Part shown: in pieces, positions 2,244 to 18,915 of the stretch
How positions within the stretch are numbered: the stretch's first letter is position 1
Layout: each line of letters opens with the position of its first letter
IMG/VR virus record: IMGVR_UViG_3300017747_001665
Coordinates: 1 to 37,421 of that record
DNA: 37,421 nucleotides
Origin: a virus
Taxonomy: Duplodnaviria; Caudoviricetes
Strand: one strand, 5' to 3'
Position numbers and translations under genes: made by a program
Notes under the pieces: generated by a model
The model's input: only the letters and a program-made list of their open reading frames with translations
Databases searched by the model: none
What the model was told of the DNA's origin: nothing

Positions 2244-2816
2244 TCACAAATACCTTACCCTCAAAGCGCCTGCTACGCGACTGTCACTTTGCAAGTCAGC
2301 AAGCTGGCAAGCTAGCTCGTGCTTGCACTTTTTCCAAGCTAAATGAGCCTCATTTGGGCAGTCAAAGTAGCCTATATTTACTCTTTTCCCGCTAATTGGG
2401 TTACTGCATCTGGCCTCAAACTTGCCCCTGAATTTATTAAAGTTAACACCAATGGGCCACTCCCCCCTTCGCTTTCTGCAATCTAAGGTAAATAAATTAA
2501 CTGAAGCATCTACAAATGCGCAATTTTCAACAGAGTAAACCTTGTTTCCGCGATTGATAATATCTTTGTCTAGCTCTTTTCCCTGCCAGTCCTGAGTTTC
2601 CATCCATGCTTTGAAATTTCTAAAACTATGCCACTCTTCGGCAACAGAGCAACCAGTGTATGTCGGGCTATCTCTGTGAAGCTTATCACTGTAGCACCTC
2701 ATCATCATGTGGTACCATCTGTCGTAAAAAGCGCAGCGAATAAACTCTCCACGGATTCCTCTGTGCGCGCGTTCCGCGTCGTTTACTCCGATGCCATAAA
2801 CTAACTTTTTAGCCAT
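2244..2816 (-). CDS. HNH-like (DKD variant) / AP2-like domain protein, copy A
   Basis: Motifs W..M..RCY, PTY.GCSV..EW..F.NF..W, LDKDI....K.YS...C.FV...N, and C-terminal PIGV...KF.A.C....IGYF...EAH. Paralogue of 13129-13725. Start at 2816 or 2828. Confidence 0.75.
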   Translation of the reverse strand: MAKKLVYGIGVNDAERAHRGIRGEFIRCAFYDRWYHMMMRCYSDKLHRDSPTYTGCSVAEEWHSFRNFKAWMETQDWQGKELDKDIINRGNKVYSVENCAFVDASVNLFTLDCRKRRGEWPIGVNFNKFRGKFEARCSNPISGKRVNIGYFDCPNEAHLAWKKCKHELACQLADLQSDSRVAGALRVRYL

Positions 2817-2835
2817 TTTTATCACCATAAAATTA

Positions 2836-2950
2836 AACCCTGATTAGTTGAGACGGGCTACGGAAAGCCACCTAATCAGGGTTCAAAGTAGTTCCGTTCT
2901 GTGCTTCAGCTTTTGGCTTGCAATCAGCTTGCGTCTCACGGCTTGCTGAT
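2836..2950 (-). ncRNA. Putative structured ncRNA / leader with two pseudoknot-type pairings, copy A
   Basis: P1 AUCAGC/GCUGAU with loop CGUGAGAC; P2 with CAAAA loop; 12-bp P3 (2883-2872 with 2847-2836) carrying GU, inner stem GGCU/AGCC, loop UUCCGU and bulge CGUCUCAA. UGAGACG pairs with CGUCUCA and ACGGAA pairs with UUCCGU. Same architecture as 12998-13111. Confidence 0.75.
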
Positions 2951-2957
2951 AATAGTT

Positions 2958-2994
2958 ATTTTAACATGGCGGCATATTGATAATCAATGCCGCC
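2958..2994 (-). promoter_or_regulatory. Sigma70-like promoter of cassette A, overlapped by an inverted repeat
   Basis: TTGATT (2987-2982), 18-nt spacer ending in TGT, then TAAAAT (2963-2958). Predicted start is near 2950, the first base of RNA P1. Inverted repeat ggcggcat...atgccgcc at 2968-2994. Confidence 0.55.
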
Positions 2995-11504: not shown

Positions 11505-11782
11505 GCAGTTTCGACAACTGGCGCTGCACAGACACCGCAGCAGACGAACAAGCCGAGCAAGACGCAAGAGTTGCTGCATTAGCCGAGCAAATCAGGCTAC
11601 AAATGATTATGGCGGATTTTATCGACGAAATCGAGATAAGTGCAAGCTTCAACACAGAATGCTGTCAGGCAATAACCAAGGCGTTTTTGGAGGGGGTTAA
11701 TCCTGCAATCCTACTGCACAACTATGCGCAGGGTTGGTTGGATGCCGAGGCGACTAGGTTGGCTAGGGAGAGATTGAAATGA
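11501..11782 (+). CDS. Hypothetical protein (93 aa)
   Basis: Start MSSF at 11501 with ATGA overlap and GGAG RBS. Confidence 0.6.
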   Translation: MSSFDNWRCTDTAADEQAEQDARVAALAEQIRLQMIMADFIDEIEISASFNTECCQAITKAFLEGVNPAILLHNYAQGWLDAEATRLARERLK

Positions 11783-12699
11783 ACCACGTAGTTTCTTTTT
11801 CAGGCGGCAGAACTAGCGCATATATGGTTTATCTTATTGAGTCAATGCGCAAGTCTGGCGAATGGACTGAGCCAGTTGAATATATTTTTATGGACACTGG
11901 CGCAGAGCATCCGAAGACTTATGAGTTTATTAAAAAGTGCGTTGAGCATTTTGGGATTGAACTTACTTGTTTGCATGGTGACTTCAACCAACCAGTAGGG
12001 ACTGGGCACAGTTACAAAGTTGTTTCAATTGATGACTGTAAGCACGATATGATTAACGGGCCATTCGCGCAGCTTATGAAAAAGTATGGGTTACCAACGG
12101 TCATGAGCGCGTGGTGCACCAGCCGAATGAAAGAAGAGACGCATGACAAATACTGCAACGATAAATACGGCAAAGGAAAGTACACAACATGGCTAGGAAT
12201 CAGAGCGGACGAGCCGCGCAGATTAAGGATTGGCAAAACTCCACACTTGCGCTACATGGCAGAAATAACAGACTTTGAAAAAGAAGATGTATTAGATTTT
12301 TGGAAGGGAATGCCTTTTGATTTGGGGATTCAGGAGCACTTGGGCAATTGCGTGTTCTGCATTAAAAAATCAGTAAACAAACTAGCCTTGGCGGCAAGAG
12401 ATGAGCCAGAATTAGCAGCAGACTGGATTGCGGCAATCGAAGCTGGTAGTGACAGGCTAAATAACCCAATCGAAAAGCAAACAGACGGGCTGTTTGTTGA
12501 GACATATACGCAGCACATTAAAAAAGGCGTTATGTATCGCGGAAGCAATACTATGGAATCAATCATAGCTAAATTCGCTCTACACTCGCGCGAAGAAATC
12601 TATGATTCAATTCGCAGCATGAAGCGCAAAGAGTCAGGTGGATGCACCGAATCTTGCGAGGCTTTCGCATCAGAACAACTAGATTGGGTGGAAGAATGA
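11779..12699 (+). CDS. PAPS-reductase-like adenine nucleotide alpha-hydrolase family protein
   Basis: PP-loop VVSFSGGRTS, FMDTGAEH..TY.F, WCT..MK, GIRADE..R, GNCVFC, CTESCE. Confidence 0.8.
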   Translation: MNHVVSFSGGRTSAYMVYLIESMRKSGEWTEPVEYIFMDTGAEHPKTYEFIKKCVEHFGIELTCLHGDFNQPVGTGHSYKVVSIDDCKHDMINGPFAQLMKKYGLPTVMSAWCTSRMKEETHDKYCNDKYGKGKYTTWLGIRADEPRRLRIGKTPHLRYMAEITDFEKEDVLDFWKGMPFDLGIQEHLGNCVFCIKKSVNKLALAARDEPELAADWIAAIEAGSDRLNNPIEKQTDGLFVETYTQHIKKGVMYRGSNTMESIIAKFALHSREEIYDSIRSMKRKESGGCTESCEAFASEQLDWVEE

Positions 12700-12963: not shown

Positions 12964-12991
12964 TTGTGTTTTTAGCCGCGTGATATACAAT
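12964..12991 (+). promoter_or_regulatory. Sigma70-like promoter of cassette B
   Basis: TTGTGT-16 nt-TACAAT; predicted start near 12998, the first base of RNA P1. Confidence 0.5.
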
Positions 12992-12997
12992 AAAGCC

Positions 12998-13111
12998 ATC
13001 AGCTAGGAGTGAAGCCCAAACTGATTGACCGCCAGAAGCGGGATAAACAGGCTAGACGAATAAACCCGTATCAGGTGCCTACTAGCAGGCCGCTTCAACT
13101 GATACGGGTTT
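12998..13111 (+). ncRNA. Putative structured ncRNA / leader with two pseudoknot-type pairings, copy B
   Basis: P1 AUCAG/CUGAU with loop AGUGAAGC; P2 CCGC-CAGAA-GCGG; 13-bp P3 (13062-13074 with 13099-13111) carrying GU, inner stem GCCU/AGGC, loop ACUAGC and bulge CGCUUCAA. UGAAGC pairs with GCUUCA and GCUAG pairs with CUAGC. Confidence 0.75.
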
Positions 13112-13128
13112 TACTTTATGAGGCGAAA

Positions 13129-13725
13129 ATGACTAATAAATTAGTACAAGGTGTTGGGGTAAACGACGTCAGATGCCGCACTAAGTTTGTAGTTGATGGC
13201 GTTATTGTACGCTGTAAAATTTACGAAGCTTGGCGAAGTATGCTTACGCGATGCTACAGTGCGAAATGGGTGAATAAATACCCGACATACTCAGGATGTA
13301 GCGTTTCTGATGATTGGCTGATATTTAGTAACTTCAAGCGCTGGATGGAAAGTCAAGATTGGAAAGGAAAACAGCTTGATAAAGACATTCTTTCTCGTGG
13401 AAATAAGCTTTACAGCCCTGATTATTGCTGTTTTGTTTCTAGTATAACAAACACATTTATGACTGATAGCGGTGCAGTGAGAGGTGAGTGGCCTATTGGC
13501 GTTTCCTACAACAGGGCTAGAAATAAATTTATATCTGAATGCAGCAACCCTTTCACAAAAAAGAAGGAGTATTTAGGTGGCTTCGAAAATGAAATATCTG
13601 CTCATGAAGCGTGGAGAAATAGGAAACATCAGCTAGCATTGCAACTGGCTGATACGCAATCAGACGCTAGAGTGGCGGATGCGTTGAGAGTTAGATACTT
13701 AAATACAACTATTGGAGCTATTTAA
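13129..13725 (+). CDS. HNH-like (DKD variant) / AP2-like domain protein, copy B
   Basis: Same motifs as copy A, roughly half the residues identical by eye. True start is MTNKLV at 13129 after GAGG, matching the paralogue N-terminus. Confidence 0.75.
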   Translation: MTNKLVQGVGVNDVRCRTKFVVDGVIVRCKIYEAWRSMLTRCYSAKWVNKYPTYSGCSVSDDWLIFSNFKRWMESQDWKGKQLDKDILSRGNKLYSPDYCCFVSSITNTFMTDSGAVRGEWPIGVSYNRARNKFISECSNPFTKKKEYLGGFENEISAHEAWRNRKHQLALQLADTQSDARVADALRVRYLNTTIGAI

Positions 13726-14645: not shown

Positions 14646-16379
14646 ATGGCACAACTACCGCAAGGTCAGCGAATCACGCTACCCATTACCGCTACACAAG
14701 GTTACTACTTTTCAACTTCTGGCGCTGCCATCGTGCGGGTTACTCCGAGCAATGGTGGTGCGTTTGTCGTAACGATTGGAACTAACGAGACAGACGTTGG
14801 ATGGTATGGCTTTCCAGCTTCGCTTGAGCTTGTTGCTCAGTCTGGAGTGTTGACGTATAACACTACGCCATCAGCTTTAACTGCGGTTCAACTTGGAGAC
14901 CAAAGGGATAGTGATCCGGTTGATGTTGCTTTAGCGGCAAATGGATTGATTTATGGGGTAAGCGCGCTACAGGGTGCGCTTAATTTTTCAAACGTGGTGC
15001 TTTTTGGCGATTCAATTAGCGCTCAAAATAGCTTCGCAACCCCGACTGGGCTGTCTATGTCCATCGCTGCTGGTGTTGCTACGGTAACAATGCCGAATCA
15101 CCAAATGGCTGCTGGCTGGTCTTTTCGTATAAACAAAACAAATTACAGCCTGATCAATGATACGAACTTCGGCGTATATCAGGTTGCATCCGTCATCAGC
15201 GCGAACCAATTTACGTTTATTGCGCCTGCTGGTGCTGTTGATGGCGCTTATTCTGTTGCAGAAATATGCAACACCAACAAAACGCCATTTAGCGCTTATT
15301 TTAATGCCTATAACAGCATCAATGGCGAGGCGTTTAGGTTGTCGGCAATCTGTGCCAGATCCGGCGATTCCACATTAGAGATGCTGGCTAGGATAGATGA
15401 AATTTCCACTTATGGAGGATATACGGTGTTTGTGCTCGGCGGTACAAATGATGCCATTCGAGCGCAATCACTAGCTGATTCCAAATTGAATATTAGCTTA
15501 ATTGTAAACAAAATTTCGTCATTCGGTTGTCGTGTTGTCATTCTAACAATCCCGCCTGTAAGTTCGGCGGTGCCACTACAGGGAGGTCAGACAGCTACGC
15601 AGAGGGCGCAATGGGTTGCAGAGTACAACGACCACATAAAATCACTAGCGTCATCCGGATCTGTAACTGTAGTTGATATTTATAGCGCACTAGTAGATAA
15701 GACATCAGCAACGGCAAACTTTGTATCTACCATGACTTATGACGGCGTTCACCTGTCGCCGCTGGGATGTGTAACTGTTGCTCCGCTGCTCCAGGCTGCG
15801 CTTAACCAAAGGAAACTACCTAGAGTTTCAAGCAACTTGCAGACCGCAAACCAATTACTGCCAAATCCCCTTTTCATTGGCACTGGTGGTACCGCAAACG
15901 CTGGCATCACTGGCACAATCGCGGCAGGGAAAAGCTGTCAGCGCACAGGTGCGGCAACTGCGGTTGGCAGCTTGGTTGCCAGGTCTGATGGCAACGGTAA
16001 CGCGCAGCAGCTTGTTGTTACCGCCGCTGCTGATGAGCGCATCATTTATGATGAGCCTAGCATTTTAGGCTCTGTATCTGCTGGAGATATTATAAAATTT
16101 TCTACCACAATAAATGCGGTGGCGTGGGCTAACGTAAGAACCATAAGCGTTCAGCTAATTATGACCGTTGGCGGGATAAATTTTATTGCAAACTCAGCGT
16201 TCAATAACCAACCAGGATTTACTACAGCGCCATTTACTGGCGTAACTGGTGACGTTAGATTTTCCACTGAGGCGGTGCCTGTCCCTGCTGGAGTAACTGC
16301 AATATTAACAAGGATTGACACTACGTTTAGCTCAGGCACGACAGTTAGCTATTCAGAAAGTCAGGTTGTGAAACTATAA
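14646..16379 (+). CDS. SGNH/GDSL hydrolase-domain protein 1, probably virion-associated
   Basis: Blocks FGDS, GGTND and DGVH; beta-rich C-terminal domain; N-terminal 107 aa shared with 17308-18915. Confidence 0.8.
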   Translation: MAQLPQGQRITLPITATQGYYFSTSGAAIVRVTPSNGGAFVVTIGTNETDVGWYGFPASLELVAQSGVLTYNTTPSALTAVQLGDQRDSDPVDVALAANGLIYGVSALQGALNFSNVVLFGDSISAQNSFATPTGLSMSIAAGVATVTMPNHQMAAGWSFRINKTNYSLINDTNFGVYQVASVISANQFTFIAPAGAVDGAYSVAEICNTNKTPFSAYFNAYNSINGEAFRLSAICARSGDSTLEMLARIDEISTYGGYTVFVLGGTNDAIRAQSLADSKLNISLIVNKISSFGCRVVILTIPPVSSAVPLQGGQTATQRAQWVAEYNDHIKSLASSGSVTVVDIYSALVDKTSATANFVSTMTYDGVHLSPLGCVTVAPLLQAALNQRKLPRVSSNLQTANQLLPNPLFIGTGGTANAGITGTIAAGKSCQRTGAATAVGSLVARSDGNGNAQQLVVTAAADERIIYDEPSILGSVSAGDIIKFSTTINAVAWANVRTISVQLIMTVGGINFIANSAFNNQPGFTTAPFTGVTGDVRFSTEAVPVPAGVTAILTRIDTTFSSGTTVSYSESQVVKL

Positions 16380-17307: not shown

Positions 17308-18915
17308 ATGGCTCAATTAGCACAAGGACAGCGCTTGACGCTGCCAATCACTTCGACACAAGGTTATTACCTATCAACATCAGGCGCTGCAATTGTCAGA
17401 GTTACACCATCAAACGGCGGCGCTTTTGTTGTGACCATTGGTAACAATGAAACGGATGTTGGCTGGTACGGATTCGACGCATCATTAGAGTTGGTTGCGC
17501 AATCTGGCGTGCTTACTTACAACACAACACCTTCAGCGCTGACGGCGATTCAGTTGGGGGATCAGCGTGATAGCGATCCGGTTGATTTGGCTTTGGCGGT
17601 TAATGGGCTTATTTCAGGAGTTTCAGCAGCAAGAGTTATCAAAACAGCAGCTATCGGAGACAGTCGCCTAGCAAACAGTGTTCAAAACCAAACCGCTGGT
17701 GGAATAACTAAGTTGAATTGGTCTAATCAGGGCGTAATCTACTGGCTTAATATGTTTTTAAATCAGCGATTAGATATTAGAGCAGAGAGTGTTTTTGCTG
17801 TTAGCGGGTCTACGACTTCACAGATATTATTGCAAGTGCCAAGCGCAATATCTAGCGGCTGCAAAATCTGCTTTATAAACGGCGGCACTAATGATTTGTC
17901 TGCATCTGGCACCATTGCTACGGCTGATGCAGCATTCAACAACTTAACAAGCGCGGCAGCTCAGTTGGTGGAGGCTGGAATATTGCCAGTGATTGAATGC
18001 GACATGCCAAGGACTGCTGCTAGCTGGACTGCTAACGCCTCAAAATTATCAGCTTATTTAAACAGAAAATTAAGAGTGTGGTGCAAGGAGGTTGGCATCC
18101 CATTTGCTGACTTTGAAGCTAGATACGTCAAGGCTGATGGAGATCCGCAAACAGGTTACAACGTAGCTGATGGTATTCATCAAAGCTGCACAGGTGCGGT
18201 GGTTAGAGCTAACGCATATGCGGCAGCTTTGCAAGATTACCTAACGCCATACACATTAAAAACAGGCACTCCGCTTGATGTTTATGACGCATCATTCTTT
18301 CCATCCGGTAATCTGCTTTCAGTTGGATTAATGCTTGGAACTGGTGGCACAAACACTGGCACTGGCGCGTCAGGCTCAGTATCAACTGGATGGCAAAACC
18401 GCATAGTAAGCGGAACAGGTACGGCTGTTGCAAGTAAAGAGTCGCCTCGGACTGATGGCGCGTTAGGGGACAGGCTTGTAGTTGCTTTGTCTGCGACAAC
18501 AGCTATTACCTACAGACTCAGCCCTGCAAATATAGTAACTACAGGTAAGTTGGTGTCTGGCGATCAGGTTTGTGCGGAAATGGATTTTGAGATTACTGCT
18601 TTAGCTGGCTCAATTGACTATATTAGATTGTTTCTTCAAGACTTTGACGGAGTGACAGCAGGTTCAACAAGCGTTACGGGCAAAGATGTTTTTGCTACAG
18701 GATTAAACCCGCTTCCACTTGTACCGCTGCCAAACAACACAGGCTCAGGAAACTTATACACAACGCTTGCTGGCAGAATTAAAACAGAAGTGGTTGTTAT
18801 TGGGCAGACAATAACATCAACAGAGTTGATTTTAAGGCTTGAGGCTGGCTTGAATGTTGCAGCTAGCTGCACCTTTAAAATTGGCGATGTAGTTATTAGA
18901 AAGCTTGGTAGTTAA
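17308..18915 (+). CDS. SGNH/GDSL hydrolase-domain protein 2, probably virion-associated
   Basis: Blocks IGDS, GGTND and DGIH; first 107 aa are 97/107 identical to protein 1; GAGGA RBS. Confidence 0.8.
   Translation: MAQLAQGQRLTLPITSTQGYYLSTSGAAIVRVTPSNGGAFVVTIGNNETDVGWYGFDASLELVAQSGVLTYNTTPSALTAIQLGDQRDSDPVDLALAVNGLISGVSAARVIKTAAIGDSRLANSVQNQTAGGITKLNWSNQGVIYWLNMFLNQRLDIRAESVFAVSGSTTSQILLQVPSAISSGCKICFINGGTNDLSASGTIATADAAFNNLTSAAAQLVEAGILPVIECDMPRTAASWTANASKLSAYLNRKLRVWCKEVGIPFADFEARYVKADGDPQTGYNVADGIHQSCTGAVVRANAYAAALQDYLTPYTLKTGTPLDVYDASFFPSGNLLSVGLMLGTGGTNTGTGASGSVSTGWQNRIVSGTGTAVASKESPRTDGALGDRLVVALSATTAITYRLSPANIVTTGKLVSGDQVCAEMDFEITALAGSIDYIRLFLQDFDGVTAGSTSVTGKDVFATGLNPLPLVPLPNNTGSGNLYTTLAGRIKTEVVVIGQTITSTELILRLEAGLNVAASCTFKIGDVVIRKLGS

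Follow-up and report, generated by a model that had tools for sequence, protein, structure and literature searches.

The DNA analysed here (the window, 37,421 nt) is a complete phage record of 37.4 kb with direct terminal repeats, and codes for portal, capsid, terminase, primase, helicase, exonuclease VIII, ssb and endolysin. Neither a tyrosine integrase nor a serine recombinase could be detected in the window, so a role in lysogen immunity of the P4 type is unsupported. Two cassettes, A and B, each have the order predicted promoter, leader RNA, predicted terminator, ribosome-binding site (RBS) and gene (Table 1). The promoter of cassette B was not called by a stricter promoter scan. A PAPS-reductase-like gene (PHROG 33262; 11779-12699) lies upstream of cassette B, and in another phage (L183) an RNA copy and endonuclease lie downstream of the same gene. 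Elsewhere in the window, 14646-16379 and 17308-18915 are paralogous large ORFs with near-identical N-terminal parts of ~105 aa and different remainders, which by motif we take to be GDSL/SGNH-like; they are possibly alternative tail or host-interaction proteins.

Table 1. Features of the two cassettes, in window positions
Feature	Position	Strand	Details
Cassette A predicted sigma-70 promoter	2958..2987	-	-35 TTGATT, 18 nt, extended -10 TG-N-TAAAAT
RNA copy A	2950 to 2836	-	upstream of ORF 2816-2244
Copy A P1 hairpin	2923..2950	-	8-nt loop 2940-2933 with box a1 (2938-2933), C4-type a1 loop
Copy A P2 hairpin	2908..2918	-	CAAAA loop; resembles CAAAA hairpin of IsrK/seqA
Copy A box b1	2892..2897	-	single-stranded linker, complementary to P3 apical loop
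Copy A P3	2836..2884	-	C4-like hairpin, predicted intrinsic terminator
Copy A P3 parts		-	outer stem, GU, 4-bp inner stem, loop b' 2865-2860, bulge with a' 2854-2849
Copy A U-tract after P3	2830..2837	-	6 U in 8 nt
Cassette A ribosome-binding core GGTG	2823..2826	-	6 nt before likely start at 2816
Putative homing endonuclease A, HNH-like/AP2	2244..2816	-	about 190 aa; further in-frame ATG upstream at 2828
Cassette B predicted promoter	12964..12991	+	weak -35 TTGTGT, -10 TACAAT at 12986-12991
RNA copy B	12998..13117	+	upstream of ORF 13129-13725 (RNA also given as 12998-13111); a1 loop 13008-13015, b1 13051-13055, P3 and U-tract
Putative homing endonuclease B, HNH-like/AP2	13129..13725	+	198 aa, 54% identical to A

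Both ORFs match PHROG 953, HNH endonuclease (E 7e-79 for A and 3.7e-86 for B), and protein A matches Pfam AP2 at E 6.8e-5, which is below the curated cut-off. Structure prediction (mean pLDDT 85.6) places an AP2 fold at the C terminus (Z 6.6, rmsd 2.0, 56 aligned), and AP2 was the sole kind of match above E 0.001 in a Foldseek search of the PDB. No solved relative of the protein was found by sequence, and the ESM Atlas gave leads under 0.9 only. In the N-terminal domain, a D-K-D and an N are invariant but no His is, and the structural match to PacI is weak (Z 4.0, rmsd 4.2, 88 aligned). Because the N-terminal domain has no invariant His, nuclease activity is assigned from the family annotation, and we refer to proteins A and B as putative HNH-AP2 homing endonucleases. 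The protein also matches Barbaviruses, in 115 Rheinheimera phage records. Judged by architecture, the two proteins share the domain arrangement of the IPA-HNH homing endonucleases, which are described as having a divergent N-terminal HNH-like domain and a C-terminal AP2 domain and as being abundant in Barbaviruses (PMC10448857); a search of the main text of that paper turned up no promoter, hairpin or terminator.

A covarying family of leader RNAs

The minimum-energy fold of copy A consists of P1, P2 and P3, the last with a 4-bp inner stem, a 6-nt loop and an 8-nt bulge, in agreement with the fold that an earlier note on this DNA had drawn for it. The note did not say that copy A reads on the minus strand. 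It has the two copies fold identically; in the unconstrained minimum-energy structure of copy B, however, the 5′ half folds differently. Single-sequence stability is modest (z -1.84 for A and -2.75 for B), and the case for the RNA therefore rests on comparison.

In 19 of 19 members, box b′ in the P3 apical loop and box a′ in its 3′ bulge are complementary to the upstream boxes b1 and a1; both long-range complements claimed for the window are present as written. Measured sequence by sequence, the a pairing has 6-7 bp and the b pairing 5-7 bp in all 19, and the complementarity between a1 and the P3 bulge is found in 21/21 members. In an alignment of 18 sequences, 92% of cells pair, as against 27-51% in slid controls, a favourable comparison in that the structure was drawn from the same 18 sequences. 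Changes on both sides are seen in 27 of the 39 pairs, which bears out the covariation that had been claimed, P3 included. The second pairing reaches only 74% in this alignment because its register shifts.

The boxes fall into distinct types. There are seven different a boxes, each complementary to its own partner at 6/6 positions, and none of the 42 crossed pairs is perfect; the a and b boxes reassort into 10 combinations among the 21 members. Both boxes of copy B differ from those of copy A, and the a pairing is worth -9.0 and -6.3 kcal/mol for the cognate partners and about -1 for the crossed ones. The two copies, earlier described as orthogonal, are thus cross-incompatible at the RNA-RNA level, a result that concerns this one two-copy genome, since single copies were found in each of the other 20 positive records among the 36.

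The signals around the RNA are equally regular. The best -10 match (offsets 4-11) sits 6-7 nt before P1 in 19/19 members, with 5 or 6 of 6 consensus matches in 18 of them; the box is present in both cassettes, with a gap of 7 nt in copy A and 6 nt in copy B in place of the 7-8 nt given previously. In 21/21 members, the 8 nt after P3 include 5-7 U, and the RBS core comes 9-12 nt after the P3 stem, again in 21/21, so that the U-rich run just before the RBS is general. The U-tracts are interrupted in the strict family defined below, and, to judge from their sequence, may terminate weakly. Neither a conserved strand-exchange antiterminator nor an RBS-sequestering helix was found in the 21 members. 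A leader open in frame with the ORF was considered as a conserved feature and rejected, as it occurs in only 3 of 21 members, all B-type.

Protein searches gathered 13, 79 and 80 loci. A covariance model of homologue leaders, proposed in the earlier note and built here from 18 members, found strong matches 14 times in 100 sources and not once in a further 96. A gene-independent pattern for P3 found 15 viral loci (8 of them on contigs already seen, and two pairs encoding identical proteins), a pattern for the 5′ half found 38, of which the two that match the model were already known, and searches of related phages contributed L241, L274 and L272. The family is now known from 21 phage loci. In GTDB genomes the P3 pattern gave 39 matches, and none of the 38 scored with the RNA model matched it (L214, which overlaps L213, was left out). 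BLASTN against cultured phages gave nothing relevant for copies A, B, L025 and L103. With L098 it led to Pseudoalteromonas phage Pq0, whose leader is a reduced form (41.4 bits) that keeps the a pairing, and with L029 to Pseudomonas phage AH02, which has a longer form before an unrelated ORF; in Aeromonas phage vB_AsaM-56, a single loop-loop form precedes the homologue by eye.

An Rfam scan of the whole window gave no match at gathering score, and at E up to 10 both copies gave chance-level matches only; on 20 related loci it found only tRNAs and one int-alpA. We could find no description of this RNA family in the open-licence PMC and bioRxiv literature. The leaders form a genuine RNA family that covaries, is coupled to HNH-AP2 genes and is uncatalogued in Rfam.

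Association with the gene and movement of the cassette

Approached from the RNA, the association is close: all 15 loci of the P3 pattern are directly upstream of an HNH-AP2 gene, and such a gene follows in 17 of the 18 loci found from the RNA side. The exception is L272, where the RNA precedes a 72-aa ORF without a PHROG match. This RNA copy is without the endonuclease, and an ABC-ATPase/acetyltransferase-like gene (PHROG 11143; L272:274-1326, minus strand) lies two ORFs downstream of it. From the side of the gene the link is loose, because most homologues lack the RNA. A terminator-like hairpin is present in 28 of 145 distinct homologue leaders, comprising 12 of the strict form (the window's two included), 1 reduced, 12 longer and 3 without boxes, and absent from 117. 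The two complementarities beat shuffled upstream sequence (p <= 0.05) in 11 of the 12 longer forms and in 17 of the 28 hairpin leaders overall. In a quick, weakly supported protein tree, all but one of the 12 strict-form rows group together, in a weak cluster of 18 rows. Reduced- or longer-leader cassettes adjoin tRNA genes in L087, L103 and L114.

Downstream of ssb, the window and L098 have the cassette, which L232, L236, L239 and L242 lack at this site. In L241, a cassette (756-1910) has a duplicate of the first 22 ssb codons on one side and an intact, diverged ssb on the other, an arrangement that is likely a trace of insertion at the ssb 5′ end. A hairpin after ssb in the window (2968-2993, minus strand) overlaps the -35 box of cassette A; the empty-site relatives have a shorter GC hairpin in its place. 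At site B (window 13129-13725, L176/L036 and L184), three phages have common flanks and RNAs differing by 1 nt before ORFs that are 45-54% identical, which means that the RNA does not track a cognate protein. The DNA similarity of the site B ORF to L184 stops mid-gene, at about 13412, suggesting domain swapping.

These observations bear on the proposal of an RNA-protein module, in which the HNH-AP2 protein would be bound by the terminated RNA serving as its antitoxin, scaffold or guide, options that had been offered in the earlier note. The layout of promoter, RNA, terminator and gene would suit such a module, as would the predominance of the HNH-AP2 family behind the RNA. Against it, near-identical RNAs before such different proteins, together with the many homologues that are without the RNA, make an antitoxin or guide unlikely; L272 and phage AH02 have such leaders before other ORFs; the variable boxes pair inside the RNA, and tandem units are absent; and the protein has, in its predicted structure, an AP2 DNA-binding domain of its own. 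We consider an RNA-protein module quite improbable. Two known systems of this kind were rejected individually. Type III toxin-antitoxin loci consist of tandem pseudoknot repeats and a cognate RNase toxin; the present loci have one unit each, an HNH-like/AP2 protein and divergent proteins behind one RNA type. OMEGA/HEARO RNAs have a variable guide outside the scaffold and an IscB-type RuvC/HNH protein; here there is no Rfam match, the variable boxes pair internally and the protein is a 190-aa HNH-AP2 protein.

Relation to C4/CI and other regulatory RNAs

The earlier note had named the P1 C4 and P4 CI antisense RNAs as an analogy and did not recognize the RNA as either; the analogy was right, and closer than was judged. 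C4/CI RNAs are processed by RNase P. The present RNA shares with P4 seqA/CI and the P1/P7 C4 systems (RF01695, RF01394) a promoter-proximal a1 hairpin, whose loop is 8 nt long and closed by two G-C pairs in all of them. Compared by eye, the present a1 loops are identical or 7/8 identical to c4-a1b1 rows (PMC2864571 supplement), and the loop of copy A has 7 of 8 nt in common with P4. Also shared with P4/C4 are the CAAAA hairpin, a single-stranded b1 and exchangeable specificity boxes, and with C4/CI the stalked hairpin with b′ in its loop and a′ in the 3′ bulge.

The differences concern arrangement and context. The P4 control leader has a -10 box, the CAAAA hairpin, the a1 loop, b1 and a terminator (Rfam isrK), and continues into C4/CI with its b′ loop and a′ bulge and then a2 and b2 at the RBS. 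Compared with about 350 nt in P4, the present RNA has a length of about 120 nt, and its CAAAA hairpin comes after a1 and ahead of b1 rather than before a1, giving the order a1, CAAAA, b1 and C4-like terminator where IsrK/seqA has CAAAA, a1, b1 and its own terminator. There is no separate seqA terminator, and the C4-like hairpin itself carries the U-tract. In the strict family, 2 unpaired nt replace the tetraloop side arm that C4 has 5′ of the b′ stem. There are no downstream a2/b2 targets such as P4 and the other C4 systems have; in a search of 200 nt downstream in 19 members, the best matches were near shuffled levels. Unlike P4 and P1 C4, the present RNA stands before an HNH-AP2 gene, and no integrase was detected in its phage. 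The RF01695 model scores the P4 control at 74.9 bits and does not match copies A or B even at E up to 10, and there is likewise no match to isrK RF01394 even at E up to 10. By analogy, then, the present RNA would work like a C4/CI module, but it falls outside the C4 family.

Precedents for the action of such parts come in both polarities. As described in PMC4825925, CI acting in trans on seqA/seqC causes termination, and short IsrK activates its read-through transcript in trans; PMC3632133 gives the same opposition of CI termination and short IsrK activation. Gifsy-1 IsrK resembles the present system, according to the account in PMC4825925, in having a short terminated RNA and a read-through mRNA from one promoter, the short form working in trans on its own operon; unlike the present RNA, it activates translation and is described there without an internal a′/b′ partner. 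In the guanidine-IV riboswitch, a 5′ hairpin loop pairs, as here, with a loop inside the terminator, and this kissing loop hinders completion of the terminator (PMC11611296); as presented in that source, it has one kissing interaction and a ligand, whereas the present RNA has two variable pairings and no known ligand. Finally, expression of T-even homing endonuclease genes is limited by simple terminators (mobE, segF) or RBS hairpins, another case of RNA structure restraining the expression of mobile endonucleases; as described in PMC2988022, those elements are tied to late promoters and do not have bipartite long-range pairing.

Static fold or switch

Both long-range pairings covary, and the question is whether they form a static double pseudoknot, as was originally proposed, or alternate with the terminator. 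Geometry was parsed in 20 members, with boxes chosen by eye. Overall, b1 lies 0-11 nt from the stem base (the 11-nt value is probably a mis-parse of L114) and b′ 15-38 bp above it; the strict form has 5-9 nt and 15-18 bp, the longer relatives 0-11 nt and 21-38 bp, and the linker does not grow with the P3 stem. In L029, L121 and L056, a linker of 0 nt (or about 2 without extension of the b helix) stands against 21-23 bp. A helix rises about 2.8 Å per bp, and a linker spans about 6 Å per nt. A 0-nt linker thus faces about 60 Å, so that in these three the b pairing excludes the closed stem in one molecule and can only be transient or form between molecules. For the strict family, coexistence of both pairings with a closed P3 is borderline, and a static fold might just be possible there. 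Because the second pairing cannot coexist with the P3 stem in the longer relatives, the element is likely a switch, and the double pseudoknot with all helices formed at once is geometrically excluded in several of them.

That the RNA regulates read-through into the gene is, in our judgement, very probable, and an attenuator, one of the functions suggested earlier, fits. The specific reading that we favour, at about even chances of being correct, is a self-limiting transcription attenuator built from C4/CI-type parts between the predicted promoter and the RBS. Transcription is predicted to start at P1. As P3 emerges, its b′ loop and a′ bulge would pair in cis with b1 and a1 and hinder, sterically or topologically, the zipping of the long P3 stem, and the polymerase would read through, so that the endonuclease and any co-transcribed downstream genes would be made early. 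When P3 closes instead, transcription is predicted to stop at the U-tract, releasing a short RNA (about 120 nt) that may be trimmed within the AU-rich linker. In the last and weakest step, accumulated small RNAs may bind a1/b1 of new transcripts in trans, block cis pairing and enforce termination, as P4 CI does on seqA. Expression would come in an early pulse and then be shut off, in a manner specific for each a/b type.

A simpler, fairly unlikely version dispenses with the trans action of the released RNA: the two pairings would race terminator closure in cis, and the fraction of read-through would be fixed, or adjusted by a protein or ligand acting at the conserved CARAA/ACAG elements. The whole of the structural evidence is compatible with this cis-only kinetic attenuator, no trans targets were found, and the guanidine-IV riboswitch (PMC11611296) and the T-even homing endonuclease genes damped by terminators (PMC2988022) provide precedents. 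It leaves unexplained, however, the variation of the boxes into many types and their reassortment, the difference of the window's two copies in both boxes, and the match of the parts to a trans-acting antisense system. Cross-incompatibility of A and B is what trans action would favour; diversification of the boxes could also be neutral compensatory drift.

The polarity might also be reversed, with cis pairing locking the gene OFF and the short RNA activating in trans, as short IsrK does in the account of PMC4825925. This would suit the strict family, in which the pairings might coexist with P3; in the longer relatives, the b pairing cannot coexist with a closed terminator, and there is no RBS-sequestering structure for a trans RNA to open. 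We regard reversed polarity as improbable. A very improbable alternative makes the element a trans-acting small RNA whose targets are other transcripts, of phage or host, and the endonuclease gene a passenger. In its favour, the analysis predicts a discrete terminated RNA, and C4/CI RNAs act in trans; against it, the only joint a and b match of copy A within the window is the element itself. The shorter boxes of copy B match many places in the window, possibly by chance.

The least likely reading, to the point of being almost negligible, is a self-cleaving ribozyme with two pseudoknots, another of the functions raised at the outset. Twister and HDV-type ribozymes have two long-range pairings, as does the present RNA. 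Against this, Rfam yields no ribozyme match at any E up to 10, the architecture varies freely among relatives, and the RNA ends in a terminator-type U-tract. Catalogued self-cleaving ribozymes were rejected, as no consensus match occurs in the window or related loci.

The leaders add an uncatalogued, strongly covarying phage RNA family with links to the C4/CI/IsrK systems, which have so far been known from temperate-phage immunity regions. If the self-limiting attenuator is correct, a mobile endonuclease would time its own expression with RNA alone, independently of the phage programme. We suggest, more tentatively and with some doubt, that one 120-nt unit might serve as leader, antiterminator, terminator and trans repressor, an RNA-only timer that is also a self/non-self code. 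Its two exchangeable 6-nt boxes would then let each cassette silence its own type only, a co-infecting phage with other boxes would keep firing its nuclease, and a C4/CI immunity module would have been recast for homing-endonuclease competition between phages. Being short and occurring naturally in orthogonal a/b types, the unit lends itself to compact tests of steric or topological antitermination, and the types offer a ready set of small-RNA-controlled terminators; related forms are available in the cultured phages Pq0, vB_AsaM-56 and AH02.

Leaders of another kind occur on other HNH-AP2 homologues. An int-alpA-type leader is present at L001:1406-1470 and L097:1411-1476 (Rfam RF02996 match in two), and its loop looks by eye to be complementary to repeats at the RBS; similar leaders were seen by eye in L058, L053, L084, L089, L110, L125, L139, L167 and L231. 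The leader class "none" (94/123) accordingly overstates leaderless genes, the pattern having under-called int-alpA-like leaders. From its sequence, the int-alpA-type leader appears to be a second RNA control system on the HNH-AP2 gene family.
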